Positions 6 to 61,069 of a stretch of DNA of 64,000 nt are shown here, piece after piece. This stretch comes from Acetobacteraceae bacterium (GTDB lineage Bacteria > Pseudomonadota > Alphaproteobacteria > Acetobacterales > Acetobacteraceae). The stretch lies in NCBI GenBank assembly GCA_965198825.1, contig CBDAQB010000002.1, positions 431,209 to 495,208 of the forward strand, written 5' to 3'. Numbering within the stretch: the stretch's first letter is position 1; each line of letters opens with the position of its first letter. A program made the translations under genes and the position numbers. The notes beneath the pieces were generated by a model. It saw nothing but the letters and a program-made list of their open reading frames with translations, was not told the origin of the DNA and searched no databases.

Positions 6-2069
6 GTGCTGCTGGCGGAGGAGGTGCTGGGTTTGTTGGCGCCTGGTTCGCCGGTTTGCTCGCTGGCTGGCCGGCTCCCGCTTGCGTCGCTGCCTGGCTT
101 GCTGAGGCGCTGCGCTTTGTTCGTAGGGAACGACAGTGGGCCGAAGCATATCGCGGGGAGCCTAGGCGTGCCGACCGTGGGGGTGCACTCCGGCGTGGTT
201 GACGCACGCGAGTGGGGACCGATGGGCCATGCTTCGGTGGCGGTTCAGAGGCAGATGGTGTGCGGGCCCTGCTACCTGGCGTTCGCAGAGGAATGCCCAC
301 GCGCACTGGCGTGCCTGACCGGGTTGCGGCCACGTGACGTTTATGCGGCGTGCCGGCGGGTGATGGCGGTTGGTCCGGCTGGGCTCTTGGAGAAAGAGGA
401 AGAAGTTGCCGCCATGCAGGCGCCGTTGAACCAGGCGCTGAAGCCCGCTGCCGCGGCAGTGCCGAGTGGCGTCGAGGGCATGTTGGGAGCAGCGCTGTCG
501 GAAGCGAGAGCCTTGGCCTTGCAGCCGCTCGCGCCGGTGGGGGCGCCTCAGGGCTATATCGAGACGGTCGCCTCGGATGGGTCGGGCGTGGTGTGGTTCG
601 TCGGCTGGATGCGGGACGAGCATCCTCTGGAGTTCGCGGCCGTCGTGGCGGCAAGGCGCCAGCATGCGGTCGGGGTGGGGCTGATGGTTTATCCTCGCGC
701 CGACCTGCCGCCGAACGCGCGCGGCGTGATCGGCATCGCGGCTGGGGAATGGGAGCCGGCCGCCGGAGAGGACGGATCGCTGGAGGCCTTCACCTTGTTC
801 TTTGGCGAAGCAGGGCGGTTCCATTTCCGCTGCCACATGCCGCTGCGCCGGCTGACGGTTCAGAAGCTGGCAGGCGAGTACCGGGATCTGCTGGCGCGCG
901 GGCACTCGATGCGGCTGGCGCCGAGCGTGCAGCGCCTGCTTGGCGCGCTCGAGAACTGGGAGCCGACGAAGGCTGGGCCGGCATGGCTAGGGGTGGAGGC
1001 GTCGGTCGATCGGATCCTCCTGGTGCCTGGCCTCGGCTGCATGGTGGAGGGATGGGTGCTAAGCCCGCTGCGACGCATCGATACGCTGCGGCTGCGCGTG
1101 GGCGGCGTGGTGATGACGCTCAGGCAGGAGACGCTCGGGTGGAAGCGCCGGCAGGATCTCGTCGCCGCCTATCCTGGCAGCGCCTCCATGGCGGGGCGCG
1201 CGGGGTTCGTGGGTCTGTTCGAATCGGGCGAGGAGCCGGTGGATTTTGCCGAGTCTATCCTCAAGCTGGTGTTCGAGGGCGGTACGTCGGTGAACTGGGT
1301 CGTTCCACCGAAACTGTTCAGGCGGTTGGGACAGTCGGCGAGTCTGGACGATGCTCGCCTCTTCTTTCCGGCCTTGGAGGAAGAGGCGTTCTTTTCGCAA
1401 TTCGCGGCGGCGGCCGTGCGAGCGGAGCGGGCATTGATGGCGCCGCCGCAGGTGATCCAGGCGGCCGCGGCGAAGCGGGTGCTGGTGTTCGGCCTCCCCA
1501 CCGAGCGGTGCGACCTGTTCCTGTTGTTCGAGGAGGTGGCGCGGCGCTGCAGGCGGCCGGATGCGGCTGGGTTCGATGGCGTGGTTTTTCTCGGCACAGC
1601 AGGCAGCGGCCGGTCGGATGCGCTGTGGATGGTGCGCGAATTCATGCGCGATGCGCCGGCGGCCGCGGCCAGCCTGATGATGATCGCCGACCAGAGCCAG
1701 GCCCTGGCGCAATTGCCTGGCGTGCTCGGGCTGGTGGGTGCGGAGCGCTTCCTGTTCGTGGCGGCAGGGTCGTTCCTGACTGCCGCAGGGTGGGATGTCG
1801 TGCCCTTCGTGCTGGAGGAAACGCCTGGGCTGGTGTGCCTGACGGGCGCGGACCGCACTCCGGGCGCGCGCGCCTTCGGCTGGTCGGCGGACGCGTTCGC
1901 GCTCTGGTCGGAAGGAGCGCCGCGGTTCGTGGGCGGCATCTTCGGCGACAACGGGCTCAGCGCAGAGACGCCAGTCATCGTGGCTGACGCGGTGCGGTCG
2001 AGCCGGGCAGAGGGGCGCAACAGGTTGCAGGATGCGGTGAACCGCGTTCTAGCGGAGACGCCAGCGTGA
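6..2069 (+). CDS. Glycosyltransferase family 9 (heptosyltransferase-like) C-terminal part fused to a large unknown domain; 5' end probably outside the window
   Basis: GT9-type motif FVGNDSGPKHIA...GVPTV and Cys-rich CGPCYL..C tail in the first ~120 aa; frame is open to the window edge; remaining ~550 aa not recognised. Confidence 0.7.
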   Translation: MLLAEEVLGLLAPGSPVCSLAGRLPLASLPGLLRRCALFVGNDSGPKHIAGSLGVPTVGVHSGVVDAREWGPMGHASVAVQRQMVCGPCYLAFAEECPRALACLTGLRPRDVYAACRRVMAVGPAGLLEKEEEVAAMQAPLNQALKPAAAAVPSGVEGMLGAALSEARALALQPLAPVGAPQGYIETVASDGSGVVWFVGWMRDEHPLEFAAVVAARRQHAVGVGLMVYPRADLPPNARGVIGIAAGEWEPAAGEDGSLEAFTLFFGEAGRFHFRCHMPLRRLTVQKLAGEYRDLLARGHSMRLAPSVQRLLGALENWEPTKAGPAWLGVEASVDRILLVPGLGCMVEGWVLSPLRRIDTLRLRVGGVVMTLRQETLGWKRRQDLVAAYPGSASMAGRAGFVGLFESGEEPVDFAESILKLVFEGGTSVNWVVPPKLFRRLGQSASLDDARLFFPALEEEAFFSQFAAAAVRAERALMAPPQVIQAAAAKRVLVFGLPTERCDLFLLFEEVARRCRRPDAAGFDGVVFLGTAGSGRSDALWMVREFMRDAPAAAASLMMIADQSQALAQLPGVLGLVGAERFLFVAAGSFLTAAGWDVVPFVLEETPGLVCLTGADRTPGARAFGWSADAFALWSEGAPRFVGGIFGDNGLSAETPVIVADAVRSSRAEGRNRLQDAVNRVLAETPA

Positions 2070-3325
2070 CCATCGCCATCGTCGCGCATACCCATCCGTC
2101 GGTCAGCAAAGGCGGTGCCGAGATCGCGGCCTTTGCGCTCTACGAGGGGCTGCTGGCGTCGGGTACAGAGGCCATCTTCATCGCCCTCTGCCATGAGCAG
2201 GACCGCGAGTCGCTAAGGCTGGGGTCGGACCGCGAGTTCGCCATCATGACGGACCCGATGCGCTACGATCATTTCTACCAGCTCGCCTCGCCTGACGTGT
2301 GGCGGCAATTGTCGGCGATCCTGCGCGGCCGTGACGTACGTCTGGTGAATTTCCACCACTTCCTCGGCCTCGGCGTGAACACGCTGCACCGGCTGGTGTC
2401 CGACACCGGCATCCCTTTCGTGGTGACGTTCCACGAGTTCCTGGCGATCTGTAACCACCATGGGCAGATGGTCACGAGGCCGGCGCGCCGGCTGTGTGAC
2501 ATGGCGAGTCCAGAGGCGTGCAGCGCCTGTTACCCGGAGCATTCGCGCGCCCAGTTCGCCCGAAGAGCCACGCTGATCTGCGAGGCGCTGATGCCCGCGG
2601 CGGCCTTCGTCTCGCCCAGCCGCTTCCTGGCGGACCGGATGATCGCCTGGGGACTGCCTGCCGACCGGTTCGCTGTGATCGAGAACGGGCTGCGGCGCGT
2701 GGAGGCGCCTGTGCCGCCGAGGCGGACGCGCGGGAAGCCTTGGGTATTCGGCTATTTCGGCCAGCTCACGCCATTCAAGGGCGGTGATATCCTGCTCGAC
2801 GCGATCGAAAACCTCGGGCAATCGGCGGAGCATGGCATTCGGCTGCGGCTGCACGGCACGCTCGTCGGGCAGCCGCCGGAGTTCGTCAAACGCTTCGAGG
2901 CAGCGTTCGCGTCGCAGGAATGGGCGCGCTTCCTGGGGCCCTACGACAATGCCGACGTCGGCGCGCTGATGAGCGCATGCGACTACGTGCTCATGCCGAG
3001 CACCTGGTGGGAAAACTCGCCGGTCGTCATTCAGGAGGCGTTCGCCGCAGGACGCCCTGTGATCTGCACAGGGATAGGCGGTATGGCCGAGAAAGTGCCC
3101 GACAGGCAGGCGGGGCTTCATTTTCGTCGCGGCGATGCGGCCGATCTGGCCCGGGTGATGCGAGAGGCGGCCGACGATGTGCTCTACGCCGCGCTTTGCT
3201 CGCAATTGCCGGGAGTGATGGATGGGGCTGCGATGGCGCGCGCCTACTTGGCGCTGTTTGAGCGGATGGGGGTAGGAAGCAGTTCTTTTTTGAAAAAAAG
3301 AACCAAAAAACTTTTGCGAACTTAG
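2066..3325 (+). CDS. Glycosyltransferase family 4 (GT-B)
   Basis: N-terminal GGAEI motif, C-terminal PSTWWENSPVVIQEA; 4-nt overlap with upstream stop; last 16 codons come from repeat A1. Confidence 0.85.
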   Translation: MTIAIVAHTHPSVSKGGAEIAAFALYEGLLASGTEAIFIALCHEQDRESLRLGSDREFAIMTDPMRYDHFYQLASPDVWRQLSAILRGRDVRLVNFHHFLGLGVNTLHRLVSDTGIPFVVTFHEFLAICNHHGQMVTRPARRLCDMASPEACSACYPEHSRAQFARRATLICEALMPAAAFVSPSRFLADRMIAWGLPADRFAVIENGLRRVEAPVPPRRTRGKPWVFGYFGQLTPFKGGDILLDAIENLGQSAEHGIRLRLHGTLVGQPPEFVKRFEAAFASQEWARFLGPYDNADVGALMSACDYVLMPSTWWENSPVVIQEAFAAGRPVICTGIGGMAEKVPDRQAGLHFRRGDAADLARVMREAADDVLYAALCSQLPGVMDGAAMARAYLALFERMGVGSSSFLKKRTKKLLRT

Positions 3326-3406
3326 GCTGGGCCATCGTCACGATCTCGGTCCCATAGCCCAAAAGTTATTTGCTTCTTTTTTTCAAAAAAGAAGCGCTGC
3401 CTTCCT
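3275..3406. repeat. AT-rich inverted-repeat element, family A copy 1 (complete)
   Basis: Left arm GTTCTTTTTTGAAAAAAAGAACCAAAAAACTTTT, 45-bp spacer, right arm AAAAGTTATTTGCTTCTTTTTTTCAAAAAAGAAG; TA at both flanks. Confidence 0.95.
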
Positions 3407-3514
3407 TACTTACTACTACCCACGTCTGTAAAATCGCCTCCGCTGGAGTGAAGCTTCAGTGATAGCATCAAACCACGCTTGATTCTGTCGCGCCGATGAA
3501 CATACGTTAGGCGG

Positions 3515-4513
3515 ATGTATTTATCGGGCAAGGCAATGGTCTCAGCGGAACGCAAGTTGCCGGTTTCACGCTTGATGGCTGTGTTAATTGCAGGGGCCTG
3601 TCTGTTGGCCAGCGGCAGCGCGCAGGCGCAGCACCGCACGGTTCGGATCGGCTACCAGAAATACGGCAATCTCGTGCTGGAGAAGGTGCGGGGATCGCTG
3701 GAGAAACGGCTGGCGCCAATGGGCGTGAGCGTGACCTGGACAGAATTTCTGGGCGGGCCTGCGCTGCTGGAGGCAATGGGCGGCGGAAGCGTGGATTTCG
3801 GCATTGCGGGCGACACGCCGCCGATTTTCGCGCAGGCTGCCGGGGTGAAGCTCGCCTATGTCGGCGTGGAGCCGGCGGCGCCGCATGGGGAGGCGCTGAT
3901 CGTGCTGCAAAGCTCGCCGATCAAGACCATTGCGGATCTCAAGGGGAAGCGGGTGGCGCTGAACCGCGGATCAAACGTGCATAATCTGCTGGTGCAAGTG
4001 CTGGCGGAGGCGAACCTGACGCCTGCTGATATTCAGACGGTGTTTCTCAAGCCCTCCGACGCACGGCCGGCGTTCGAGAACGGCAGCGTTGATGCGTGGG
4101 TGATCTGGGATCCCTATCTTGCGGCCGCGGAAACAGCGCTCCTCACGCGCAAGATTGCGGACGGCGTCGCGCCTGACGGCAAGGTGGTGGACGAGAACCG
4201 CGAGTATCTGCTGGCGAGCGCGGAGTTCGCGTCGCGCCAGCCCGATCTCGTCAAGGCCATTCTGGCGGATCTCGCCGAGACCGAAGCCTATGCGTCGGGT
4301 CATCGCGCACAGCTGACGGCGTTGCTGGCGCCTGAGATGGGCATGGATCCCAAGGCAGTGCAGCGCGCCGTCGATCGGCTGTCGTTCGGCGTGCTGCCTG
4401 TGGATTCAAAGATCGCCGCAGGGCAGCAGGCGATCGCCGACACATTGGCAAAACTCAATCTCATTCCGGACCCGGTGGACATCCACGAGGCCCTTCCCGC
4501 CCACGCGCTTTAG
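3515..4513 (+). CDS. ssuA: Aliphatic sulfonate ABC transporter substrate-binding protein
   Basis: Signal peptide; [24 protein letters not shown] motifs; operon with ssuD/C/B. Confidence 0.9.
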
Positions 4514-4526
4514 GGACAATTCGACC

Positions 4527-5690
4527 ATGCAAGTTCTTTGGTTCCTGCCGACACACGGCGATGGACGCTATCTGGCGACCCAGGTCGGCGGCCGTGCCCT
4601 GACGTTCGACTATTTGCGCCAGGTGGCGCAGGCGGCCGACCAGTCCGGCTATTATGGCGTGCTGCTACCGACGGGGCGCTCCTGCGAGGATAGCTGGGTG
4701 GTGGCCTCCACGGTGGCGCCGTTTACCAAGCAGCTGCGCTTCCTGGTGGCGCTGCGCCCCGGGCTGGTGTCGCCCGTCATGGGCGCGCGCATGGCGGCCG
4801 CACTCGACCGCGCGACGGACGGGCGGCTGCTCATCAACGTCGTCACCGGCGGCGATCCGGTTGAGCTCAAGGGCGACGGCATGTGGCTGGCGCACGACGA
4901 GCGCTACGGGCTGACGGACGAGTTCCTGCAGGTGTGGCGCCGAGTCATGTCGGGCGAGAGCGTGACGTTCGAAGGCAAGCACATCCATGTCGAGGACGCG
5001 CGCCTCGCCTTTCCGCCTGTGCAGACGCCTTATCCGCCGCTGTGGTTCGGCGGCTCTTCGGCAGCCGGCATCGATGTCGCGGCAGAACAATGCGACGTGT
5101 ATCTCACCTGGGGCGAGCCGCCGGCCGCTGTCGCGGAAAAGATCAAGGTGGCACAAGCAGCCGCCGAAAAGCGTGGCCGTCGATTCAAGTTCGGCATCCG
5201 CATGCACATCGTGGTGCGCGAAACACGCCAGGCCGCCTGGGACGCTGCGAACGACCTCATCCGCTATGTCGACGAGCAAGTAATCGCCAATGCCCAGAAA
5301 GTGTTCGCACGCTACGACAGCGTGGGGCAGCAGCGCATGGCCGCGCTGCACGGCGGCGACAAATCGAAGCTGGAAATCAGCCCCGACCTCTGGGCCGGCG
5401 TGGGCCTCGTGCGGGGCGGCGCGGGCACGGCGCTCGTCGGTGACGCGGACACCGTGGCTAAGCGCCTGATCGAATATAGCGATCTTGGCGTCGATAGCTT
5501 CATCCTCTCGGGATACCCTCATCTCGAAGAGGCGTACCGCGTCGCGGAATTGCTGTTCCCACGCCTGCCTTTGTCGCATGGCACTATGAAGATCGGCAGC
5601 GATGTCGCTTTGAATGGACCGTTCGGAGAGATCATTGCCAATGAGCGTATGCCTAAGTCGGCTTCTCCTGTGATGGCTGCTGCTTCTTGA
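4527..5690 (+). CDS. ssuD: FMNH2-dependent alkanesulfonate monooxygenase
   Basis: [40 protein letters not shown] motifs. Confidence 0.95.
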
Positions 5691-5710
5691 AGAAAAAGGA
5701 AAGCGGCAGG

Positions 5711-5790
5711 AAGGCCAGGGACTCTGCCCCTGGACCCCGTCGTGCGAAAGCACGCGCTGCGCGCTGGGTGGGAGTGACCTCCCAGACCCG
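5711..5790. repeat. GC-rich palindromic element, family B (partial), between ssuD and ssuC
   Basis: AAGGCCAGGGACTCTGCCCCTGGACCCC matches the family B left arm (1 mismatch); ends with GGGAGTGACCTCCCAGACCC inner-hairpin variant. Confidence 0.75.
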
Positions 5791-5853
5791 CGGACACTCG
5801 CATAACGATTATCTTGAAGCTAACGCTACGAGCTTTCTGGATGCGCCGCTCCG

Positions 5854-6627
5854 ATGACAACGAGCCGTACCCGTCAGGCACTCCTCAGCTGGGTAGTGCC
5901 CATCCTCCTCGTTGCCGTCTGGGAACTCGTCTCCGAAACAGGCATCGTCTCGGTCCATAAATTGCCGCCGCCGCATCAGGTGGTGGTGGCCGGATGGAAG
6001 ATGCTGCTGAAGGGCGAGCTGGTGCGCGATGTGCTCGTCTCGACAGCACGCGCAGCCGCAGGGTTTGCAATCGGCGGAGGGCTAGGCTTCATCTTTGGGC
6101 TTTTCGCCGGCGTCTGCCGCGCCGCGGAAACGACGGTGGACAGCTCGCTGCAGATGCTGCGCATGGTGCCGCATCTCGCCTTGATCCCGCTGATCATTCT
6201 TTGGTTCGGCATCGGCGAGTCGGCGAAGATCTTCCTCGTGGCGCTCGGCGTGTTCTTCCCGATCTACTACAACACCTACCACGGCATACGCGGCATCGAC
6301 GATGGGCTGCTCGAAATGGCGCGCATCCAGGGCCTGGGCAAATGGGCGCTGTTCCGGGAAGTGATCTTTCCCGGCGCGCTGCCTTCCATCCTTGTCGGCG
6401 TGCGCTACGGACTTGGCATTATGTGGCTGACGCTCATCGTGGCGGAGACCATCGCCGGCAATGCCGGGATCGGCTTCATGACGATGAACGCCCGTGAGTT
6501 TATGCAAACCGATGTCGTGCTGCTGGGCATCGTTCTCTACGCGTTACTCGGTAAACTGATCGATGTCGGCGCGCGCCGGATCGAAGGGAGTGCACTCGCA
6601 TGGCATCCGTCCTTCGGCAGCAACTGA
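5854..6627 (+). CDS. ssuC: Sulfonate ABC transporter permease
   Basis: Hydrophobic; [24 protein letters not shown]-region motifs. Confidence 0.9.
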
Positions 6628-7415
6628 ACCCGTTCGCGGACGCGCTCCCACGCGAACGCCCGGCGTCGCGCGCCTTCGAGCTGCCGGCGCCCGCAAACCG
6701 CAACCGCGGGCTGCCGATCGCAGTCAACGGCATTGCCAAAAGCTTTGGCGGCCGCTCGGTTCTTCGCAAGATCAGCCTCGATATTGCCCCTGGCCAATTC
6801 GTGGCCGTCGTCGGGCGTAGCGGTTCGGGCAAGAGCACGCTGCTGCGCCTTCTCGCCGGTCTCGAGGCGCCGGACGAGGGGAATGTGCTGCTCGGTGGCC
6901 GTTCGCCGCAGGAAGCTTCGGCCGCCCTGCGCATCATGTTCCAGGACGGAAGGCTGCTGCCGTGGCGTTCGGTAATTGCCAACGTAGCGTTGGGGCTGCC
7001 CCGTGCGGCAAGGCAGCGGGCCGTGGACGCGCTGGCGTCAGTCGGGCTCGCCGACCGTGCGGACGAGTGGCCTCGTGTGCTGTCGGGTGGGCAGAAGCAG
7101 CGGGTGGCGCTGGCGCGTGCGCTTGCTGCGGAGCCTGGTCTGATCCTGCTTGATGAGCCGCTCGGCGCCCTTGATGCGCTGACACGGCTTGAGATGCAGG
7201 CGCTTATCGAAGATTTGTGGCGCCGCCTTGGATTTTCGGCTGTTTTGGTAACGCATGATGTGGCGGAAGCCGCTCTACTCGCGGATCGGATCTTGCTGAT
7301 CGAGGATGGCGGGATTGCTCTCGATATCGCGGTGGATCTGCCTCGCCCAAGGCGGCCGGGGCCTGAGGTGGCCGCGATCGAACAGAAGATCTTGGGGCAT
7401 CTGTTGAAGGGGTAG
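6600..7415 (+). CDS. ssuB: Sulfonate ABC transporter ATP-binding protein
   Basis: Walker [14 protein letters not shown] signature, LLDEP Walker B. Confidence 0.9.
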
Positions 7416-7545
7416 CGAAGCACTTCTTTTTTGAAAAAAAGAAGCAAAAACTTTTGGACTGCGGGACCGAGATCGCGACGCAGACTCAGCCTAAATTCGC
7501 AAAAGTTCCTTTGTTCTTTTTTTCAAAAAAGAACTGCTTTCTTTC
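7415..7545. repeat. Family A copy 2 (complete), fills the gap between convergent stop codons
   Basis: Both arms present, 45-bp spacer; bounded by ssuB TAG and the GGDEF gene TAG. Confidence 0.95.
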
Positions 7546-8912
7546 TAACCCACCATCTCTAGCTTTTCGAACAACGAGAACCGCCCCTTTCCAGTCCGCT
7601 TGGCGTGATACAGCGCCTGGTCGGCTTCGCTGAGCAGGGCTTCGGGTGTTTCGTGGTGGATATCGGCGATGACGATACCGACGCTAATGCCGATATTCAC
7701 TTCCTGGCCTTCCGGGCCGAAGCGGCGCGGCATGTTGGTGACGATGCGCGCGGCGACAACGGCGGCTTCGTCGGCGCTGTTGATGCGGTCGAGAAGCATG
7801 GCAAATTCGTCGCCGCCTAGGCGGGCGACGAGATCGTCCTGGCGGTAGACGCAGCCTTTGAGGAAGAGGGCGGTTTCGCGTAGCAGGTCGTCGCCGGCGG
7901 CGTGGCCGAGTTGGTCGTTGACCTGCTTGAAGCCGTCGAGGTCCATGGTGACGATGGCGAAGGAGGCGTCCCCGCGGCGCCGGCGCGGAACCAGGCGGGT
8001 CATGAGGCGGTCCATGAATTGCGCGCGGTTGGGCAGGCCGGTGAGGAAGTCGTGGCGGGCCATGTGGGCAACTTCGGCTTCGGCCAGGCGGCGGAGCTTG
8101 TCCGACGCGAGAAGCCAGCCCGCGTTGTGCCAGATGAGCACAGCCATGGAGAGCATGGTGAGCATGACCATGACCGCGACGCCGATTTGCTGGCTGTAGA
8201 GGCCGGCTGTTTCGCCTTCCTGCCTGAGCCAGCCTAGGGCGACGGGGATGATGACGGCCGCGGGGAGAAGCGCACGGCTGGAGCGGCCGGCGGGGCCGCG
8301 GTCGGAAATGCGGGCGACAAGGCCGCGGTCTGCGGTTTCGAGCAGGATGAAGGCGGCGAGTGAGAGGAAGGCGATGGCGGCGTGCAGCGCCATCGGGTGG
8401 AGGGCGGCTACCACATAGAAGGCGGCGACGCCGTAGAGGTGGCCGACCATGGTGAAGACGGCGATGAGGGCGGCGACGAACGCCATGGCTTGGAGGGCTA
8501 CCACGTCGCGCTTAGAGCGTCGGCCCATCAGGAGCACGGCGGCGCTGATCAGGACGAAGCAGCCGGCGGTGTTAGGCGCGATCCGGCTGGGGCGAGCGTA
8601 GCCGGTGGTGAGCTGCGAAGCGAAGAAACTAGTGTCGACGTTAAAGTGGGTGCCGAGGACCAGGTCGGCGAGCTTGAGGACGCCGATGAGGCCGGCGGCG
8701 GCGATCAGGATCGTGCCGGCCGTGTTGGCGACACGGCCACCGCGAAACCGGACGATCAGGCCGGTACTGATGAGGAGGAAGGCCACAGCGGTTGCTGGGT
8801 TCATGGTGACCGAGCCGAGGCCGATGCGTTTCAACGGCTCTATGGCGAACGTCCAGCCGGCGAGCACAAGCGTGCCTATCGCAAACGGGATTGTCGCCAG
8901 CAGCCGTATCAA
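7545..8912 (-). CDS. Membrane-bound diguanylate cyclase (GGDEF)
   Basis: Multi-TM N-terminus; DFLTGLPNR, DLDGFKQVND..GH..GD, intact GGDEF and RxxD I-site (RQDD). Confidence 0.9.
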   Translation of the reverse strand: MIRLLATIPFAIGTLVLAGWTFAIEPLKRIGLGSVTMNPATAVAFLLISTGLIVRFRGGRVANTAGTILIAAAGLIGVLKLADLVLGTHFNVDTSFFASQLTTGYARPSRIAPNTAGCFVLISAAVLLMGRRSKRDVVALQAMAFVAALIAVFTMVGHLYGVAAFYVVAALHPMALHAAIAFLSLAAFILLETADRGLVARISDRGPAGRSSRALLPAAVIIPVALGWLRQEGETAGLYSQQIGVAVMVMLTMLSMAVLIWHNAGWLLASDKLRRLAEAEVAHMARHDFLTGLPNRAQFMDRLMTRLVPRRRRGDASFAIVTMDLDGFKQVNDQLGHAAGDDLLRETALFLKGCVYRQDDLVARLGGDEFAMLLDRINSADEAAVVAARIVTNMPRRFGPEGQEVNIGISVGIVIADIHHETPEALLSEADQALYHAKRTGKGRFSLFEKLEMVG

Positions 8913-9112
8913 GATGGCTTTCTCCGCCCTTCAAATAGCGACAATGCTCCGGGCCTGGAACATTCTACAACCAGGCTATAACAGTTTCGTGTGTAACGCA
9001 ACCTTAGGTAGAAATAGGCGCACAGAAGCTCTGGTCTGCTGCGGCCGATGAGGGGCATACCCTCCGCTGCGCCTTCTGTTAGGGTTGGCAAGCGTCTTTC
9101 CAGGATCAGCCG

Positions 9113-9985
9113 ATGACCTATCGCAAGCTTCTCCTGCCGCTCACTGCCGATGCCGCGGGCGAGGCGGCGCTTGCCACCGGGTTGATGCTAGCGAAGCAGT
9201 GGGGCGCGCATCTCACCTGCCTCGCCGTGCAGGTCGATAGCCGGGATGTCGCGCCGCTGGCGGGCGAAGGGCTGTCCGGGACAATGATCGAGGAGATGAT
9301 GCACGCGACCGAGCGGCAGAACGCCGAGGCCGCCCGGCAGGCGGCTGCGTTGTTTGCGCGCGCCGCGGAAACGCTGGGGGTCGAGGTCGCTGAGAGCGGA
9401 GCTGCCGCGCGGCCGGGCGAAGCGAGCACCAGCTTTACGGCAGTTGTCGGACGAGAGGAGGAACTCGTGCCCGCGCTGGCGCGGCTAAGCGACCTCACCG
9501 TTTTGCCGCACCCGAAACGCGAGGCGGACGCAGCCGGATCAGACGCGCTTCACGCCGTGCTGTTCGACAGCGGGCGGCCGGTTCTCATCGCGCCACGCCA
9601 GGCGCCGGCGTCGCTGGGAACGCGCTGCGCCGTCGCCTGGAACGGCACGCATCAGGGAGCGGCCGCACTCGCTGCGATTTTGCCTTGGCTGCGGAAGGCG
9701 GAGGCGGTGCGGGTGCTTTACGCGGCTGAATATCAGAGGCGCGATCCGCCGGCTTCCGAGGTGCTGCCCTATCTCGCCATGCATGGCGTATCGGCAGATG
9801 CGGCCGAGTTCCGGGTGGAAGGCGGCGCTGTCGGGGCCGGGTTGCTGGCGGGGGCTGCTGCGTTCGGCGCCGATCTGCTGGGCATGGGAGCTTATGCGCA
9901 CTCGCGTTTGCGCCAGGCTATTCTGGGCGGTGTGACGCGGCATGTTCTGGGGAACGCGGCTCTGCCGGTTTTGATGAGTCGGTAA
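9113..9985 (+). CDS. Universal stress protein (tandem UspA domains)
   Basis: DSGRPVL, VAWNG, DLLGMGAYAHSRLRQAILGGVTRHVL. Confidence 0.9.
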   Translation: MTYRKLLLPLTADAAGEAALATGLMLAKQWGAHLTCLAVQVDSRDVAPLAGEGLSGTMIEEMMHATERQNAEAARQAAALFARAAETLGVEVAESGAAARPGEASTSFTAVVGREEELVPALARLSDLTVLPHPKREADAAGSDALHAVLFDSGRPVLIAPRQAPASLGTRCAVAWNGTHQGAAALAAILPWLRKAEAVRVLYAAEYQRRDPPASEVLPYLAMHGVSADAAEFRVEGGAVGAGLLAGAAAFGADLLGMGAYAHSRLRQAILGGVTRHVLGNAALPVLMSR

Positions 9986-10117
9986 GAGAGCAAGGACTTC
10001 TTTTTTGAAAAAAAGAAGCAAAAAACTTTTTCCGATGTGGGACCGGGATCGTGGGTCACGCCGAGCCCAAGTGGCAAAAGTTTTTTGGTTCTTTTTTTCA
10101 AAAAAGAACTGCTTTCT
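9985..10117. repeat. Family A copy 3 (complete)
   Basis: Both arms, 45-bp spacer; bounded by convergent TAA stops. Confidence 0.95.
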
Positions 10118-11016
10118 TACTTCTCTTTGATGAGATCCACCGCCCCTTTTGTATCGTTACCCGTCACCTTCGGCGTAGTCGCCGACAAATTCATCAGCAA
10201 TGCGGTGCGCTGGCCAGTGTCGTTTGTAAAATGGTTGTTCTGCACGAAGATTTCCGGGGTTGGTTGATCGACCCCTTCGGCGCCGATGGCGATGGCGGCG
10301 TTTGTGTTGCCGGTGTGGGGGCCTTTTTCGAGCGTGTTGAAGCGGACGATGACGGTGCCGCCGTTTGGAGCTTCGACAAGGTAGCTTGAGGTGCCATCAG
10401 CGCCGTCGGTGATGTCGTTCCCAAGGACAACGGTCCGGGCGGCGCGGGATTTGATGGCGTGACCGTCGCGCGTGTTGGTGAAGCGGCTGCTGACGACACG
10501 AAGTTCGGCGATGCGGCCGGCGTAGATGGCGTGGGCGCAGGCGTCGCCACAGTAGCCGTTGCGGTCGAAGACGCTGTTCTCGACGAGGATTTTCGAGTCG
10601 GGCGAGGGGTTGGCGAGGATGCCGTCCTGGTTGTCGATGAACTGGACGTGGTCGACCGTGAGGTTTGCGCCTTCTTCGCGTATGCCGGCGCCATTGCCGT
10701 CCGGCACGCGGGCGCCGCCTAGGGTGAGATTGCGTATGGTGACGTTGTTGCCTTCGATGACGAGGATGCCCTTGCCGTCGCAGGTGCGGCCGGCGAGGAG
10801 GGTTTTTCCTGGCGTGCCCATGCCTTCGATGGTGATGTTGTTGGCACGCACCGTTGCGCAGTCCTGGTACTGGCCGGGCTCGATTTGGATGGTGTCGCCA
10901 TCGTCGGCGTCGGCCACTGCGCCGGAGACGCGGGCGTAGCCTTTGCCAGGGCCAACATGCAGCGTGCCGGCGGCCGCTGTGAGTGGTAGGAGAAGGAACA
11001 TCACGGCCAGGCGCAT
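10117..11016 (-). CDS. Secreted right-handed parallel beta-helix protein (pectin-lyase-like fold)
   Basis: Start re-set to ATG 11016 (MRLAVMFLLLPLTAAAG signal peptide); Asn/Gly-rich repeats such as GNGAGIR, NQDGIL, GHAIKSRA. Confidence 0.75.
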   Translation of the reverse strand: MRLAVMFLLLPLTAAAGTLHVGPGKGYARVSGAVADADDGDTIQIEPGQYQDCATVRANNITIEGMGTPGKTLLAGRTCDGKGILVIEGNNVTIRNLTLGGARVPDGNGAGIREEGANLTVDHVQFIDNQDGILANPSPDSKILVENSVFDRNGYCGDACAHAIYAGRIAELRVVSSRFTNTRDGHAIKSRAARTVVLGNDITDGADGTSSYLVEAPNGGTVIVRFNTLEKGPHTGNTNAAIAIGAEGVDQPTPEIFVQNNHFTNDTGQRTALLMNLSATTPKVTGNDTKGAVDLIKEK

Positions 11017-11115
11017 CGGTGGGCTCCAGGGGCGGCGGGTTGCAGGCTTGCTGCTTAGCACACGTTTCTGTATCGGTTGCGCGCCGGCTGGCACCGGCTT
11101 GGAGGCTTTATCCTC

Positions 11116-13065
11116 ATGTGCGGCATAGCGGGCATTTTCTCGGCCGACGCGGGTGCGCAGCCCGAGGGTCGCGCCGTTCGGCGTATGACGGATGCGCTCA
11201 GCCACCGTGGACCGGACGGTGAAGGTCTGCACGAGGATCCGGGCGTGGCCCTGGGACATAGGCGGCTTGCGATCATCGATCCCGAGGGCGGGCATCAGCC
11301 GATGTACAACGAGGACGAGAGCATCGCGATCGTCTTCAACGGCGAGATCTATGATTTTGCGACGCTTCGTGACGAGCTTGCGGCAATGGGGCACGTGTTC
11401 CGCAATCGCTGCGATACGGAAACCATTGTGCATGCCTGGGAAAGCTGGGGGCCGGCTTGCGTCGAGCGGCTCGATGGGATGTTCGCCTTCGCTTTGTGGG
11501 ACAGGCGTCTGGGGCAACTGTTTTGCGCGCGGGACAGGTTGGGCAAGAAGCCGTTCTACTATGCGATGGTGGATGGCGACTTCGTCTTCGGCTCCGAGAT
11601 GTGCGCGCTGACGACGATCGCTGGCTTGGATCGTCGTATCGATCCGCGGGCGGTGGATGATTTCTTCGCTTACGGCTACGTGCCCGAGCCCGAGACGATT
11701 TTTACGGGCGTGAAGAAGCTGCCAGCGGGGCACACGCTTCTTGTGGAGCGGGATGCGTCGCGCACGCGCATCATGCCGCTTCGTCCGCGGCGTTACTGGC
11801 AACCGCTCGTAGCAACGACGGCAATCAGCGAGGCGGAGGCGGCGCCTATGCTGCGGGCGCATCTGGCGCGTGCGACGAAGTCGCGGTTGATCGCCGATGT
11901 GCCACTGGGGGCGTTCCTGTCTGGTGGCGTCGACTCGAGTGCGGTGGTGGCGACGGCTGCGGGATTGCGCCGTGAGAAGCTGGATACTTTCACGATCGGT
12001 TTCGACGGGAGCGAGGACGAGACGCCTTACGCGAATGAAGTGGCGGCGCGTTATGGGACGCGCCAGCATGTGGAGCGGGCGGCGGCAACCGATATGATCG
12101 ACGGGGCGCGTAGCCAGGCGGCTGCGTTCGGCGAACCTTTCGGCGACAGCTCTTCGGTTCCTACGATGACCGTCTGCAGGCTGGCGCGGCGTCATGCGAC
12201 CGTGGCGATTTCCGGTGACGGCGGCGACGAAGTTTTCGCGGGCTACCGGCGGACACGCTGGCACTCGCTGGTGAGCGGCGCGCGCCGGTATCTGCCTTCC
12301 GGCGTGCGTCGTCATGCCGTCGGTCGGCTGGCGGCGTTGTATCCAAAGCTCGATCGGGCACCGCGGTTCTTGCGGGCGAAGCATACTCTGACGGAACTCA
12401 GCCTCGATGCCGCCATGGGTTATGCGAGCACGGTGACGAAGCTGCATGAACGGCAGCGGCGTGCGCTGTTCACGCCGCGGTTGAGGGCCGCGGTCGAGGG
12501 ACATGCCCCGTTTGCGCGTATCGCCAGCATCATGGAGGCGGCTGAGGACGCCGACCCGGTTTTGCAGGCGCAGCTTGCGGATCTGGCGACTTGGCTGCCA
12601 GGCGACATTCTGACGAAGGCGGATCGGGCGAGCATGGCGGCTTCGCTGGAGATGCGGGCGCCGTTCCTGGATGCTGCGTTCGTGTCCTGGGGGTTGAGCC
12701 TGCCGGCTTCCCTGAAGATCAAAGGCGGCGAGGGCAAGTATATCCTGAAGAAGGCGCTGGAGCCGTTGCTGCCGCGCGACATCCTGTATCGGCCGAAGCA
12801 GGGGTTTACCAGCGATCTCGCGGGGTTCTTCCGCAGCGACATGCATCGCGTGCGTGCTGTGCTTCTGAGCGACGCGTTCCTGTCGCATGATCTGTTCGAC
12901 GCTGCTGCAATCGCGAGGGTTCTGGACGAGCATGCGGCTGGTTCGATGAACCATGCACAGGCGATCTGGCTGCTGCTGGCGTTCGAAGGGTTTTTGCATA
13001 CGCTCGAGCCGTCTGTGCCGGTGGAGCGCGCCGAGGCGCCAGCCATGGTGGTGCATGCGGGCTGA
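11116..13065 (+). CDS. asnB: Asparagine synthase-like glutamine amidotransferase (polysaccharide-associated AsnB family)
   Basis: Ntn N-terminus MCGIAG at ATG 11116; HRGPDG, GHRRLAIID, FNGEIY, LSGGVDSS, SGDGGDE. Confidence 0.85.
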   Translation: MCGIAGIFSADAGAQPEGRAVRRMTDALSHRGPDGEGLHEDPGVALGHRRLAIIDPEGGHQPMYNEDESIAIVFNGEIYDFATLRDELAAMGHVFRNRCDTETIVHAWESWGPACVERLDGMFAFALWDRRLGQLFCARDRLGKKPFYYAMVDGDFVFGSEMCALTTIAGLDRRIDPRAVDDFFAYGYVPEPETIFTGVKKLPAGHTLLVERDASRTRIMPLRPRRYWQPLVATTAISEAEAAPMLRAHLARATKSRLIADVPLGAFLSGGVDSSAVVATAAGLRREKLDTFTIGFDGSEDETPYANEVAARYGTRQHVERAAATDMIDGARSQAAAFGEPFGDSSSVPTMTVCRLARRHATVAISGDGGDEVFAGYRRTRWHSLVSGARRYLPSGVRRHAVGRLAALYPKLDRAPRFLRAKHTLTELSLDAAMGYASTVTKLHERQRRALFTPRLRAAVEGHAPFARIASIMEAAEDADPVLQAQLADLATWLPGDILTKADRASMAASLEMRAPFLDAAFVSWGLSLPASLKIKGGEGKYILKKALEPLLPRDILYRPKQGFTSDLAGFFRSDMHRVRAVLLSDAFLSHDLFDAAAIARVLDEHAAGSMNHAQAIWLLLAFEGFLHTLEPSVPVERAEAPAMVVHAG

Positions 13066-14122
13066 CGGGCCGCCTTCGCTTCTGCACGTGTTTCCGAGTT
13101 TCGTGGTGGGCGGCGCGCAGATGCGGTTTGCGGCACTCGCCAATCATTTTGGCGACGCGTTCAGGCACAGCATCGTTGCCATGGATGGGCGCACGAGCGC
13201 GCGTGATTTATTGCACAGCGAAGTGCCTGTGCAGTTTCCAGCCATCGAAACGCGCGGCGGCAACATGGCAGCGCGGGTGGCACGTTTTGCCGGGTTCTTG
13301 CGTGAGACACGCCCGCGCCGGCTGATTACCAGCAACTGGGGCAGCATCGATTGGGCCATCGCGCGCCTTTTTGCCGGCACGGCGCATGTGCATATGGAGG
13401 ATGGATTTGGGCCGGAGGAGCGGTCGACGCAATTGCCGCGTCGCGTTCTGACACGGCGCGCCGTCTTGCGCAGGAGTGAAATCATCCTGCCGTCACACAC
13501 GCTTTTGCGGCTTGCTACGGACCGTTGGCGATTGCCGAAACGGCGGTTGCATCATATTCCAAACGGCATCGATCTATCGCGATTTGCGCCGCGTGTTGGC
13601 CGGCGACAGGGGCCGCCAGTAATCGGCACCGTTGCCGCCTTGCGTGCTGAAAAGAATATCGGACGGATGATCGAGGCCTTTGCAATCGTCCGGGCGCAGG
13701 GCGAGGCAAGGCTGGTGATCGTGGGTGATGGCGCCGAGTTGCCGAAGTTGAGGGCTCAGGCCGAAGGAATGGGCTTGACCGGCGACGTGGAATTTACGGG
13801 GCATAGTGCGAGCCCGGAGCGGTTTTATGCCGGCTTCGATGTTTTTGCGTTGTCCTCCGATACAGAGCAGATGCCGCTTTCGGTGCTGGAGGCGATGGCG
13901 GCGGGGTTGCCCGTAGCTTCGACGGACGTCGGTGACGTGCGATGGATGCTTGCCGAAGAGAACGGGCCGTTTGTTGGCGAGAAGTCCGCAGAGGGGCTTG
14001 CTTCGGCGATGTTAGGTTTGCTGGCGAAGCCATCAGCCATCGGCAAAGCCAATCGTTTCAGGGCGGAGGCAGAGTTCTCGGATAGCGTGATGTTCCAGCG
14101 CCACCTGGCACTCTGGGCTTAA
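13055..14122 (+). CDS. Glycosyltransferase family 4
   Basis: GGAQMRF, HMEDGFG, IPNGID, SSDTEQMPLSVLEAMAAG; overlaps asnB stop. Confidence 0.85.
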   Translation: MRADGPPSLLHVFPSFVVGGAQMRFAALANHFGDAFRHSIVAMDGRTSARDLLHSEVPVQFPAIETRGGNMAARVARFAGFLRETRPRRLITSNWGSIDWAIARLFAGTAHVHMEDGFGPEERSTQLPRRVLTRRAVLRRSEIILPSHTLLRLATDRWRLPKRRLHHIPNGIDLSRFAPRVGRRQGPPVIGTVAALRAEKNIGRMIEAFAIVRAQGEARLVIVGDGAELPKLRAQAEGMGLTGDVEFTGHSASPERFYAGFDVFALSSDTEQMPLSVLEAMAAGLPVASTDVGDVRWMLAEENGPFVGEKSAEGLASAMLGLLAKPSAIGKANRFRAEAEFSDSVMFQRHLALWA

Positions 14123-14200
14123 GGCTCGCGCTTCCCTCAAGCGTAGCGCAAATTCGCAAAAGTTTTTTGCTTCTTTTTTTCAAAAAAGAAGTGCTTTCTT
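14123..14200. repeat. Family A copy 4 (solo right arm plus spacer remnant)
   Basis: AAATTCGC (same as the end of the A2 spacer) then AAAAGTTTTTTGCTTCTTTTTTTCAAAAAAGAAG. Confidence 0.9.
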
Positions 14201-16268: not shown

Positions 16269-16393
16269 AGGAAGCAAGGAAGGACTTCTTTTTTGAAAAA
16301 AAGAAGCAAAAAACTTCTGCATGTTTGGGCCGGGCACTTCCACTGATTGGGCCTAAAGCCCCAGGGGTTTCTTTAAAAAAGGAGTTCTTGCCT
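16269..16393. repeat. Family A copy 5 (left arm intact, right arm degenerate)
   Basis: CTTCTTTTTTGAAAAAAAGAAGCAAAAAACTT ... TTTCTTTAAAAAAGGAG. Confidence 0.85.
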
Positions 16394-22032: not shown

Positions 22033-23303
22033 ACCAGATCACCAAACCGCAGGCAGACGACGCGGCAGAGAAGCGCAGCAAGCCGGCTGAGCAACACCAG
22101 ACGCCGGGGCTCGATCATCAGGACGACCCTGAGATGGACCGCAAGCGGCGCCGCTCCGCGCGCGTTCTCGGCTTGGTCGTCGTGCTCATTCTTGTTCTGA
22201 TGGTCGGTGTAGGAGCCTGGACTCATATCGCGCGGAACGCCTCCGCACAGGAAGCACTCGAGACGCGGCAGAACACGGTGCCGACCGTGCGCACGATGGA
22301 TGCGAAGTCGATCGACACGCCGCGTACCGTCGATCTGCCTGGCAACATGCAGGCGTTCGATAGCGCGACGCTCTATGCCCGCGCGACCGGCTATATCGCG
22401 AAGCGGAACGTGGACATCGGCAGCAAGGTCAAGGCCGGCGACACACTGGCCGTAATTGCGGCGCCCGATCTCGACCAGCAATTGCAGCAGGCGCGCGCGC
22501 AGTTGGCCCAGATGCAGGCGGCGCTCGGCCAGGCGCAAGCCGGCCGTTCGCTTGCCGATGTCACCAACCGCCGGACTTCGACGCTCGTCACCGAGGGTTG
22601 GAGCAGCCGTCAGCAGGGCGACACCGACCGTTCGAACTTCACGTCGCAGACAGCGGCGGTGCGGGTGGCGCAGGCAAACATCCTGGCGCAGCAGGCGAGC
22701 GTAAACAGGCTGGTCGAACTGACCGGTTTCGAGCAGGTGAAGGCGCCTTTCGACGGCGTGATCACCAGCCGTTCGATCGACGTGGGCGCTCTGGTGAGCG
22801 CCGACCAATCAAGCGGGACGTCTCTGTTCTCGATCGCGCGCACCGATGTTCTTCGCGTGCAGGTCTATGTCCCGCAGGAATATTTCTTTGCGCTGAAGGA
22901 TGGGCAGGACGCGACGGTGACCGTGCCGCAACTTCCGGGCAAGACTTTCCACGGAACGGTCGCGCGCAACGCCGGGGCGCTGGCAACGGCGACACGCACG
23001 CTGCTTGCAGAGGTAGACGTTCAGAACGCCGACAACATGCTGTCAGCAGGTCTCTACGGCATCGTTCATCTCGAGCAGAAGCGTGATGCACCGGTGGTGC
23101 TCGTGCCATCTGAGGCAATCATCTTCAACAGGAACGGCCTGAGCGTTGCAGTCGTGAAGGACGGCAAGGTGAGCATTCAACATCTCGACGTGCTCGCCGA
23201 CGACGGTGCTCAGGTTCAGGTTCGCTCCGGGCTTAATCCTGGCGATAAGATCATTCTCAACCCTCCTGCGAATCTGAGCGAAGGGATGAAGGTTAAGACG
23301 TAG
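22029..23303 (+). CDS. RND periplasmic adaptor (membrane fusion protein)
   Basis: Single TM; ARATGYI...VDIG..VKAG lipoyl motif; APFDGVI. Confidence 0.9.
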   Translation: MNQITKPQADDAAEKRSKPAEQHQTPGLDHQDDPEMDRKRRRSARVLGLVVVLILVLMVGVGAWTHIARNASAQEALETRQNTVPTVRTMDAKSIDTPRTVDLPGNMQAFDSATLYARATGYIAKRNVDIGSKVKAGDTLAVIAAPDLDQQLQQARAQLAQMQAALGQAQAGRSLADVTNRRTSTLVTEGWSSRQQGDTDRSNFTSQTAAVRVAQANILAQQASVNRLVELTGFEQVKAPFDGVITSRSIDVGALVSADQSSGTSLFSIARTDVLRVQVYVPQEYFFALKDGQDATVTVPQLPGKTFHGTVARNAGALATATRTLLAEVDVQNADNMLSAGLYGIVHLEQKRDAPVVLVPSEAIIFNRNGLSVAVVKDGKVSIQHLDVLADDGAQVQVRSGLNPGDKIILNPPANLSEGMKVKT

Positions 23304-23460
23304 GAAGCGAGTTCTTTTTGAAAAAAGAACCAAAAACTTTTTACGACTTTGCACCACGTTTGAGGAGAAGCTCAGCCTCTCCTCGGACCTGGTCTAGAAG
23401 AACCAAAAGTTTTTTGGTTCTTTTTTTCAAAAAAGAACTGCTTGCTTCCCTTTGCCTGCC
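23303..23460. repeat. Family A copy 6 (complete, long 63-bp spacer)
   Basis: Both arms; bounded by convergent TAG stops. Confidence 0.92.
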
Positions 23461-24643: not shown

Positions 24644-24685
24644 GCAAGGAAGGTCTTCTTTTTTGAAAAAAGAAGCAAAAAACTT
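24644..24685. repeat. Family A copy 7 (solo arm) between tim44 and mltA
   Basis: GGAAGGTCTTCTTTTTTGAAAAAAGAAGCAAAAAACTT. Confidence 0.9.
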
Positions 24686-26148: not shown

Positions 26149-26691
26149 ATGTCCGAGACGACGACCACCGAAGCGCCAGCCGGCCAGCAGATCCCCCCGC
26201 TGGTGGTCAACGTTCAATACATTAAGGATCTTTCGTTCGAGGTGCCTAACGCGCCTGAGATCTACGCCACGCTGCGGTCACAGCCGGCTGTCGCCATCAA
26301 TCTCGATGTGCAGGCGCGGGCACTTCAGGAAGGCCAGAACGTCTTCGAAGTGGTGCTCTCGGTAAAGGTCGATGCGCGCGAGCCGACGCAGCCGCCCGCG
26401 TCGCAAAACGGCGCAGCGCCTGCGGCGCCCGCGCCAGGCGAGGGCCGCCCGGTGTTTATCGCCGAGCTTCAATATGCAGGCGTGTTCACGCTGAATGGCG
26501 TTCCGCCTGAGGCCGTCGAGCCGCTGCTGCTGATCGAGTGCCCGAGGTTGCTGTTCCCGTTTGCCCGCTCAGTGATTTCTGACGTGACACGGGAGGGTGG
26601 ATTCCCACCGGTGCTGCTGCAGCCGATCGATTTTGTCGGGCTCTGGCAGAGCCGCCGCGCTGCGCAGCCGGGGGCGCCGGCTCAGGCGTAA
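26149..26691 (+). CDS. secB: Protein-export chaperone SecB
   Basis: QYIKDLSFEVPNAP, CPRLLFPFAR, GGFPP..LQPIDF. Confidence 0.95.
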   Translation: MSETTTTEAPAGQQIPPLVVNVQYIKDLSFEVPNAPEIYATLRSQPAVAINLDVQARALQEGQNVFEVVLSVKVDAREPTQPPASQNGAAPAAPAPGEGRPVFIAELQYAGVFTLNGVPPEAVEPLLLIECPRLLFPFARSVISDVTREGGFPPVLLQPIDFVGLWQSRRAAQPGAPAQA

Positions 26692-26830
26692 GGGAGAACG
26701 GAAGGACTTCTTTTTTGAAAAAAAGACGCAAAAAACTTTTGGATTTTGGGACTGGGATTGTGCCGCAAGCCCGGCCTCAAGTCGCAGAAGTTTTTTGGTT
26801 CTTTTTTTCAAAAAAGAACATGCTGCCTTC
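26691..26830. repeat. Family A copy 8 (complete)
   Basis: Both arms, 45-bp spacer, starts at the secB TAA. Confidence 0.93.
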
Positions 26831-26835
26831 ACCCT

Positions 26836-27216
26836 TCAGCAATCATTACCCTTAAGGTTCCAGGACCGCACCACCCCGCCGGTCAGCTCGAAAGTGGTCG
26901 TGCATTGTTCCTGGACGATCTCGGGCGGGAAGCCGCCGAACCCGCCCCAGCCACCACCGTAGCCGTAACCGCCCCAACCGCCGTACCCGAAGCCAAAGCC
27001 AGGATCGCCGCCGTATTCGTCGATGTGGCTTTCGCTATAGGCCAGGAAGCGGTGGCCGTTGGTGTCGTAGGTGCGGTTCGGCACACCGTAGGCGCGAACC
27101 AGATCGGTTTCGGGCTTGCCGACGACGGCATTCAGTGAATCGATATGTTGCTTGCTGGGGTAGGCGCATCCGGCGAGTAGCGCCAACGCGCCTAGACTTA
27201 AGAATTTACGCATCAT
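26836..27216 (-). CDS. Small lipoprotein with Gly/aromatic-rich loop
   Basis: Lipobox LAGC; GFGFGYGGWGGYGYGGGWGGFGG; terminal Cys pair. Confidence 0.75.
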   Translation of the reverse strand: MMRKFLSLGALALLAGCAYPSKQHIDSLNAVVGKPETDLVRAYGVPNRTYDTNGHRFLAYSESHIDEYGGDPGFGFGYGGWGGYGYGGGWGGFGGFPPEIVQEQCTTTFELTGGVVRSWNLKGNDC

Positions 27217-34167: not shown

Positions 34168-34310
34168 CGAGAAGGAAGCAAGCAAGTTCTTTTTTGAAAA
34201 AAAGAACCAAAAAACTTTTGCGAGTTTAGGCCGGGCTTGAGGACGTGCGCGGCCTAAACGGGTGAAAGTTTTTTGCTTCTTTTTTTCAAAAAAGAAGTGC
34301 TTGCCTTCCT
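34168..34310. repeat. Family A copy 9 (complete), fills the obg-proB gap
   Basis: Both arms; 44-45 bp spacer containing hairpin TTTAGGCCG..CGGCCTAAA. Confidence 0.95.
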
Positions 34311-35321
<1,011 letters not shown>

Positions 35322-43190: not shown

Positions 43191-43245
43191 GCGAAGACAA
43201 AAGGAGGTCTTCTTTTTTGAAAAAAAGAAGCAAAAAAACTTTTGC
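43190..43245. repeat. Family A copy 10 (solo left arm)
   Basis: GGTCTTCTTTTTTGAAAAAAAGAAGCAAAAAAACTTTT right after the MFS TAA. Confidence 0.9.
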
Positions 43246-60852: not shown

Positions 60853-60857
60853 CGAGA

Positions 60858-61040: not shown

Positions 61041-61069
61041 ACTTCGACACACGAAATATATTTGCCGCC

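Follow-up and report, generated by a model that had tools for sequence, protein, structure and literature searches.

The stretch of DNA analysed here, referred to as the window, comprises 64,000 nucleotides from a bacterium of the family Acetobacteraceae, whose genome (4.40 Mb, 63.5% GC) is assembled in three contigs; the window corresponds to C2:431209-495208. It contains copies of a repeated element of ~135 bp, which we designate family A, and three complete copies lie within the region 3275-10117. Each element begins with an outer purine tract of the (GGAA)n type, followed by a 22-nt arm, a 13-nt inner repeat and a GC-rich, variable centre of ~42 nt, and then continues as the mirror image of these parts, closing with a pyrimidine tract as the counterpart of the purine tract. 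The arm, STTC-T6-GA-A6-GAAS (S = G or C), is self-complementary and occurs in a GAAC and a GAAG form, whereas the inner repeat, CAAAAAACTTTTG, is itself a small palindrome. We corrected the layout of the arm to 10 bp + GA + 10 bp, and the free arm hairpin is predicted to have 9 pairs and a 4-nt loop.

Element A1 (3271..3405) is complete and consists of a GAAC arm (3282-3303), two inner repeats (3304-3316 and 3360-3372) on either side of the centre (3317-3359) and a GAAG arm (3373-3394). An open reading frame (ORF) flanking A1 on the forward strand (2066..3325) reads through the left arm and ends at a TAG stop in the centre; its last ~17 codons are encoded by A1 (tail …SSFLKKRTKKLLRT before the TAG). 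Element A2 (7416..7544), also complete and of opposite polarity (GAAG arm 7423-7444, GAAC arm 7513-7534), occupies the whole spacer between the TAG stop at 7413-7415 of a forward-strand ORF (6600..7415) and the stop at 7545-7547 of a reverse-strand ORF (7545..8912). Element A3 (9986..10116), the third complete copy, has a GAAG arm at 9997-10018 and a GAAC arm at 10088-10109 and is located between the TAA stop at 9983-9985 of a forward-strand ORF (9113..9985) and the stop at 10117-10119 of a reverse-strand ORF (10117..13143).

Further elements were detected along the window. One of them (23302..23446, called A6 in an earlier, sequence-only reading of the window) is homotypic, with a 20-nt shortened left arm of the GAAC type and a GAAC arm at 23417-23438. 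The others are located at 26690..26836 (GAAG-type arm 26707-26728 with 1 mismatch, GAAC arm 26798-26819), 34168..34315 (GAAC arm 34186-34207, GAAG arm 34276-34297), 51597..51708 (GAAG arm 51597-51618, GAAC-type arm 51687-51708 with 1 mismatch) and 55905..56016 (partly degenerate GAAG-type left arm, GAAC arm 55995-56016). Solo arms of the GAAG form were present at 14170..14191, 16285..16306 and 43209..43230, together with a 21-nt solo arm of the GAAG type lacking one A (24655..24675). In total, the window yielded 35 strand-hits to the arm, with 0 expected. An uptake sequence (DNA uptake sequence or uptake signal sequence, DUS/USS) was considered and rejected: such sequences are short words scattered singly, also within genes, but the 10-mer half-arm occurs in the window only as part of arms (36/36).

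To count arms, the whole genome was scanned by Hamming distance with at most 3 mismatches to the 22-nt arm, and two arms spaced 57-79 nt were taken as a paired element. The sequence-only reading had held that each arm is its own palindrome in a GAAC or a GAAG form, with the closing pair switching jointly. The genome-wide census supported this view: among 1081 arms, the closing letters were C..G in 552, G..C in 425 and other combinations in 104, i.e., 977 arms had G..C or C..G. The same reading had noted elements that combine one arm of each form. Of 386 paired elements, with 70 nt as the commonest arm spacing, 278 were heterotypic, 41 were GAAG/GAAG and 10 were GAAC/GAAC, and random combination would give a heterotypic share of only ~49%. 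Random combination of arms with independently varying G and C positions, which had been named as the outcome that would speak against two distinguishable arms, was looked for genome-wide, and the result does not refute them.

The further proposal that spacer polarity tracks arm form was correct in part. Of the GAAC arms, 64% had CGA as the first 3 nt after the inner repeat, compared with 23% of the GAAG arms (chi-square p ~1e-21 to 1e-25), and the centre module GGAAGTGCC was polar, with an orientation ratio of 59:11. However, polarity was leaky elsewhere in the centre: the module GGGACCGAGATC was only weakly polar (82:52), and centre modules were flipped relative to the arms in 16-39% of copies. 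The inverted inner repeats probably give rise to these flips, by exchange or by template switching between them. Arm cores deviated from the consensus at ~2.4% of sites, whereas random pairs of centres were 67% identical, with a median best match of 75% and a match of at least 95% for 12/386; between genera, centres were unrelated. Thus, the arm and the inner repeat are kept constant by something common to the family while the centre drifts.

Many of the solo arms were elements cut off in the centre. In addition, 20-nt arms that had lost one T and one A symmetrically recurred at several loci of the genome. An asymmetry of G.T wobbles (50:24, p = 0.003) was observed only in GAAG arms, in a sample too small to assign a strand.

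Comparison with other genomes revealed a marked difference between the two ends. The GAAC arm with its inner repeat was unchanged in every genus inspected. The other end was a GAAG-type arm, the inner part of which varies by lineage and yet remains a perfect palindrome; variants beside the loop included ...TTTTCT-TC-AGAAAA..., ...TTTTGT-TC-ACAAAA... and ...TTTTTC-TC-GAAAAA..., and variant closing stems in other genomes included GTCC...GGAC, CTGC...GCAG and GCGC...GCGC. Partner arms were not used to find the loci and hence were unselected for sequence. In 33 distinct 22-nt partner arms, 94.5% of cells were paired and five of the ten pairs were altered on both sides. Doubly changed cells numbered 31 versus 9.8 +/- 2.1 after shuffling, a value reached in 0 of 500 shuffles, and the covariation score of these arms was 0.324 versus 0.08-0.12 when partners were slid. 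A second count covering all length classes found 90 of 125 non-T:A stem cells to be compensated, compared with 45 +/- 3.5 expected.

Mean pairing was 97% inside an arm versus 87% from arm to arm, and 63 of 98 elements had a perfect arm that did not match its partner. In the genome under study, 57 of 158 single changes fell on loop positions; beyond the closing pair, 6 of 80 two-mismatch arms were mirror-complementary, which by itself is thin evidence. A genome of another genus (G098) had 34 heterotypic pairs, 3 GAAG/GAAG pairs and 0 GAAC/GAAC pairs, and the predominance of mixed pairs (34 vs 3) suggests that arm polarity is old. Since several stem positions show more than one pair type, and a mirrored change would be useless to a dimeric protein bound to duplex DNA, we accept that what appears to be preserved is the self-folding of two different ends, and not arm-to-arm pairing. 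Constraint on two distinguishable self-folding ends, proposed as selection in the sequence-only reading, is supported by the difference in pairing, by the compensatory changes in partner arms and by the polarity kept across genera. Such folding would occur on a single strand, either in DNA during copying, in read-through RNA or in an extruded cruciform, and a conserved factor may recognise the sequence of the GAAC arm and chiefly the shape of the GAAG arm.

The distribution of the element was assessed in 201 Acetobacteraceae genomes representing 143 genera and in a sample of the class. Family A was present in 50/201 genomes and 36/143 genera and was not found in any of the 16 other families of the class searched. 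A scan of a one-genome-per-species collection for exact matches identified metagenome-assembled genomes from bog, lake and lichen, as well as Roseomonas sp. GC11, Acidiphilium sp. PA and Gluconacetobacter liquefaciens DSM 5603, as carriers. Among 26 species of one genus, arm counts ranged from 1 to 1423, and a genome may hold up to ~700 copies of the element. In this genus, eight genomes (G008, G239, G001, G012, G018, G000, G019 and G016) had 718-1423 arms, and seven (G009, G005, G024, G020, G003, G013 and G015) had 1-13. These counts show that family A multiplied in lineage-specific bursts. At an orthologous site 3' of the ssuB stop, the element was present in 12 of 23 species and absent from 11, in either orientation and with unrelated centres; this variable filling indicates repeated insertion at gene ends. 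No match to family A was found in Rfam beyond sub-threshold chance hairpins, a plasmid database search gave no useful match, and literature searches by arm sequence and by topic retrieved no description of this repeat family.

Positions relative to genes were analysed with a codon log-odds gene caller (3240 genes, 82% of the genome covered). Of the paired elements, 344/386 were located between gene calls. Convergent spacers held 121 of these 344 elements, although such spacers account for 18% of all spacers, and divergent spacers were depleted (31). The distance from the neighbouring stop to the start of the arm is 7-12 nt, and its most frequent values, 7-8 and 10-11 nt, are in step with the 4-nt period of the purine tract. 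In tandem gene pairs, 88% of upstream stops were within 20 nt of the arm. Among the 121 convergent pairs, 80 had both stops abutting the element, and the median distance between stops was 135 nt; in effect, the spacer consists of the element. Stops adjoining an element were TAA or TAG in 81% of cases versus 45% elsewhere, and were preceded by G or T, not C; ~55% of stop-abutting ends read GTAA or GTAG 7-12 nt outside the arm. A TA dinucleotide 5-16 nt outside the arm was found at 75% of stop-facing ends, at 22% of control positions and at 44% of other ends, some of which probably do face a stop given the coverage of the gene calls. For REPs (repetitive extragenic palindromic sequences), it has been reported that flanking ORFs often take their stop codon from a REP terminus (PMC3733652). 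For family A, either insertion prefers the context next to stop codons or only such copies are kept.

No target duplication was detected: direct repeats (k = 3-8) were absent at all offsets, and a TA was present on both sides of 136 elements compared with 137 expected under independence. Flanks of GAAC and GAAG ends were alike. Orientation showed no bias relative to gene direction (69:60), and its relationship with local GC skew gave p = 0.07, a weak strand test because the skew of the draft is patchy. Local GC skew flips sign many times along contigs C1-C3, and the assembly may be mis-ordered or heavily rearranged; any replichore-based test is weakened by this patchiness.

We regard family A as probably a non-autonomous, hairpin-ended repeat of the kind represented by REPs, BIMEs (bacterial interspersed mosaic elements) and REPINs (REP doublets forming hairpins), which among the searched genomes is restricted to Acetobacteraceae. 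The repeat spreads in bursts by lineage and without target duplication, and its copies land or survive 7-12 nt after stops. The whole element is predicted to form one long hairpin (-48.5 kcal/mol, z = -4.8), and each arm on its own is a weak stem (-5.6 kcal/mol as DNA). Several points weigh against this interpretation. No mobilising gene was found, and a fresh insertion with its empty counterpart in a close strain was not available, which leaves the exact ends undefined. Kinship of copies inflates the covariation counts and overstates the number of independent events, and the 22-nt class of partner arms was picked by best-pairing length. In addition, palindrome-templated mutation rather than selection could yield mirrored changes, and arm identity across genera could partly reflect horizontal spread.

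An alternative that we consider unlikely is that the copies are now immobile and kept by the host as 3'-end RNA stem-loops, which would protect or tune the upstream message or the end of translation, or as sites for a DNA-binding protein, with arms held by selection at each locus. It agrees with the near invariance of arms while centres drift, with the identity of arms across genera, and with the tight stop-codon adjacency in tandem and convergent gene pairs; the stop codons that REP termini provide to flanking ORFs offer a parallel. Liang, Rudd and Deutscher reportedly observed in 2015 an influence on translation of E. coli REPs that lie no more than 15 nt from a stop codon, which would also favour a host function. 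However, this explanation does not account for the range from 1 to 1423 arms within one genus or for the fact that the same site is filled or empty depending on species, and in either orientation when filled. Moreover, a mirrored double change would not be compensatory for a dimeric protein on double-stranded DNA. Strong termination is also unlikely, as a scan for intrinsic terminators flagged no element and the atpG-atpD spacer is occupied by one complete copy (L202:2380-2520, G000:C1). Given that atpG and atpD are normally co-transcribed, this copy must be read through. Another arm is located 12 nt after the atpC stop (L201:1908-1927). Family A may have an RNA-level role, e.g., in the stability of messages or in how translation ends, and a host function can coexist with mobility.

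The sequence-only reading had interpreted the arms as two distinguishable single-stranded DNA or RNA hairpins, as expected for recognition of left and right ends by HUH-type transposases. Spelled out, the enzyme in this model would be an HUH (Y1) transposase, either a RAYT (REP-associated tyrosine transposase) or a TnpA of the IS200/IS605 type, that cuts out and inserts the element as single-stranded DNA. The two different self-folding ends with polarity kept across genera, the lack of target duplication and the GTAA or GTAG outside about half of the stop-abutting ends are in line with this idea. Although the Y1_Tnp profile PF01797 gave no match in the genome at E <= 0.01, a tblastn search with a relative's protein revealed one intact RAYT (177 aa; C3:1805975-1806493, reverse strand, L136:3961-4494; NF047646 190.8 bits, PF01797 20.5 bits), the only HUH transposase gene detected. 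Inverted copies of GTAGGGCGTGCTCCAGCACGCC, a GC-rich REP of the classic GTAG kind, stand on both sides of this gene (G000:C3:1805886-1806650, locus L136:3887-4650), and 5.5 kb separate it from the closest family A arm. The REP GTAGGGCGTGCTCCAGCACGCC has 2 exact and 2 related copies genome-wide, i.e., this genome contains a RAYT without a REP population. Across the family, 15 of 19 RAYT loci had GTAG GC-rich palindromes within 400 nt, and 0 of 19 were bracketed by family A arms.

Occurrence of RAYT and family A was also compared. In the sample of 201 genomes, 18 had both, 32 had the element only, 22 had RAYT only and 129 had neither, a co-occurrence somewhat above chance; nevertheless, RAYT was lacking in 32 of the 50 element-bearing genomes. 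Within the genus of 26 species, a complete single-contig genome (G008) with 1423 arms had no RAYT, and genomes with 3-5 RAYT matches held 10-189 arms. No IS200-type Y1 gene was detected, no TnpB was found above the cut-off, and no Y2 transposase was detected, although control genomes were uninformative for Y2. An IS200/IS605-like mechanism predicts a one-sided target and a replication-strand bias, but the ends of family A are alike in flank context and orientation is unbiased. In addition, the first letters of an arm, past the purine tract, are GTTC or CTTC, so the palindrome has no GTAG/CGTC tag at its 5' end; the GTAR sequence does not adjoin the stem and falls on stop codons. The data therefore do not support an HUH-type transposase as the recognising enzyme, and we judge this model improbable. 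In particular, three independent tests showed that the copying enzyme is not the RAYT of these genomes. Some other hairpin-recognising enzyme is possible.

In one genome of the family (G091), two RAYT-plus-REP units were observed ~60 nt inside half family A elements (L188:1360-1465 and L189:1330-1460), and these look like insertions into the elements. One G091 arm beside a RAYT unit closes with GCGC...GCGC instead of GTTC...GAAC.

It is also conceivable, but quite improbable, that the mirrored changes in arms are a by-product of quasi-palindrome self-correction by template switching during replication, followed by amplification of founder subfamilies. Each variant arm type recurs often, suggesting amplified founders, symmetric 1-nt deletions do occur and yield the 20-nt arms, and in the genome under study few two-mismatch arms (the 6 of 80 noted above) are mirror-complementary. 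However, at least five stem positions carry double changes, with up to three pair types (T:A, C:G and G:C) beside the loop, and uncompensated intermediates are rare. Furthermore, self-correction leaves the identity of the GAAC arm, the loop and the inner repeat across genera unexplained.

Family A elements also serve as hosts for insertion sequences (ISs). All four full copies (4/4) of an IS1595-like element of 930 bp were located within family A elements, as were 10 of the 12 copies of a 1139-bp IS630-like element (99-100% identical); both ISs occupy fixed positions in the inner repeat (e.g., G000:C1:703070-704118 and C3:245850-247105). Two IS families thus appear to target the inner repeat specifically. 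Long intervals from arm to arm contained such guest ISs or ordinary genes, and no transposase bounded by arms was found in them, either in this genome or in 110 loci of other genomes. In other genomes, single genes (DUF2147, DUF347, EAL and cytochrome c) were observed between inward-facing half elements, as if located in the centre (L011:1327-2455, L025:4105-5267, L099:4221-5456 and L014:3093-4520).

The last alternative, that family A is a MITE (miniature inverted-repeat transposable element) moved in trans by a TA-inserting DDE transposase of the IS630/Tc1 type, with stops hit as the main TA sites of a GC-rich genome, is very unlikely: terminal inverted repeats of ~46 nt, the excess of TA outside stop-facing ends and of TAA or TAG among adjacent stops, and the presence of 12 IS630-like copies in the genome would fit it, but the independence of TA on the two sides and the lack of duplication argue against a TA-duplicating transposase, the ends of the IS630-like element are unlike the arms, its location within elements makes it a guest and not the parent, and no transposase is bounded by arms here or elsewhere.

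Two other candidates were discarded. Origin of the centre as a captured native terminator was ruled out by its fixed length and by modules common to several copies, and a likeness to integron attC sites was dropped because copies are scattered among core genes in both orientations. A second inverted-repeat family (family B of the sequence-only reading) was also present in the window. It is GC-rich, has arms like AGGCCAGGGGCTCTGCCCCTGGACCCCGC and occurs at 32898-33034 and 60855-61043, with a partial copy near 5711-5760; family B was also found after the ssuD stop.

Returning to family A as a hairpin-ended repeat, how its copies are made can be addressed only tentatively. A RAYT-independent copying route may operate in Acetobacteraceae, in which an unrecognised enzyme or host process reads one hairpin, the invariant AT-rich one, by sequence and the other by shape, places copies a few bases after stops without duplication and can fill ~2% of a genome; we consider this route possible but doubtful. 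The family offers a natural experiment on recognition, with one end frozen in sequence and the other free to change if it still folds. Identifying the factor could bring to light a new route of mobilisation or a role that hairpins in 3'-untranslated regions play for the host. In practice, family A elements break up assemblies of Acetobacteraceae genomes and change the C termini of ORFs.

Comparison with known systems places these features in context. Family A resembles the ERIC/IRU (enterobacterial repetitive intergenic consensus/intergenic repeat unit), Correia, RUP (repeat unit of pneumococcus) and other bacterial MITEs, which are imperfect palindromes of ~100-150 bp found in transcribed intergenic regions and operons. 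Correia and RUP elements reportedly have target duplications and plausible parent ISs, whereas neither was found for family A. It is also similar to IS200/IS605 elements and PATEs (palindrome-associated transposable elements), which have differing subterminal hairpins and cause no target duplication. In IS200/IS605 elements and PATEs, only one end adjoins a defined tetra- or pentanucleotide, 3' of which insertion takes place, and there is a replication-strand bias. In contrast, the flanks of family A are symmetric, no such bias was seen and no TnpA was found.

Like the GTAG-tagged REPs described by Di Nocera et al. (2013, PMC3733652), family A occurs near ORF ends and has stop codons at its termini; CGTC repeats were reported to be missing in Acetobacteraceae in the same study. 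Unlike in GTAG-tagged REPs, the stop in family A is 7-12 nt outside the stem, with the (GGAA)n tract in between. Enterobacterial BIMEs, according to Gilson, Bachellier and colleagues, consist of alternating Y and Z palindromic units, with gyrase, IHF or Pol I binding to the units or the linker as a further mark. Family A shares with BIMEs two distinguishable types of palindromic unit in inverted arrangement, set spacers and a location after genes and within operons. Its sequence, however, is unrelated to theirs, and it has one fixed spacing (70 +/- 2 nt) and a common, though drifting, centre.

REPs, BIMEs and REPINs are the main persistent repeats of bacterial genomes, and the accepted mobiliser of the best-studied ones is RAYT. 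Family A shares the build and habits of REPs and yet reaches ~700 copies without RAYT. REPINs have been described as pairs of inverted REPs that go with RAYT transposases (Bertels and Rainey 2011, PMC3116915). Family A and REPINs are similar in having hundreds of extragenic copies and inverted doublets of palindromes around a spacer that form a long hairpin. They also have in common solo units that resemble decayed doublets, a lack of target duplication, use as targets by ISs and inheritance by lineage. However, the stems of family A are AT homopolymers in a 63% GC genome and carry no GTAG/CGTC tag. In addition, the RAYTs of these genomes own other, GC-rich REPs, and the abundance of family A is unrelated or opposite to the presence of RAYT. 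Thus, the REP/BIME/REPIN build of family A is known, and what is new is a two-hairpin repeat with AT-rich stems that occurs across Acetobacteraceae.

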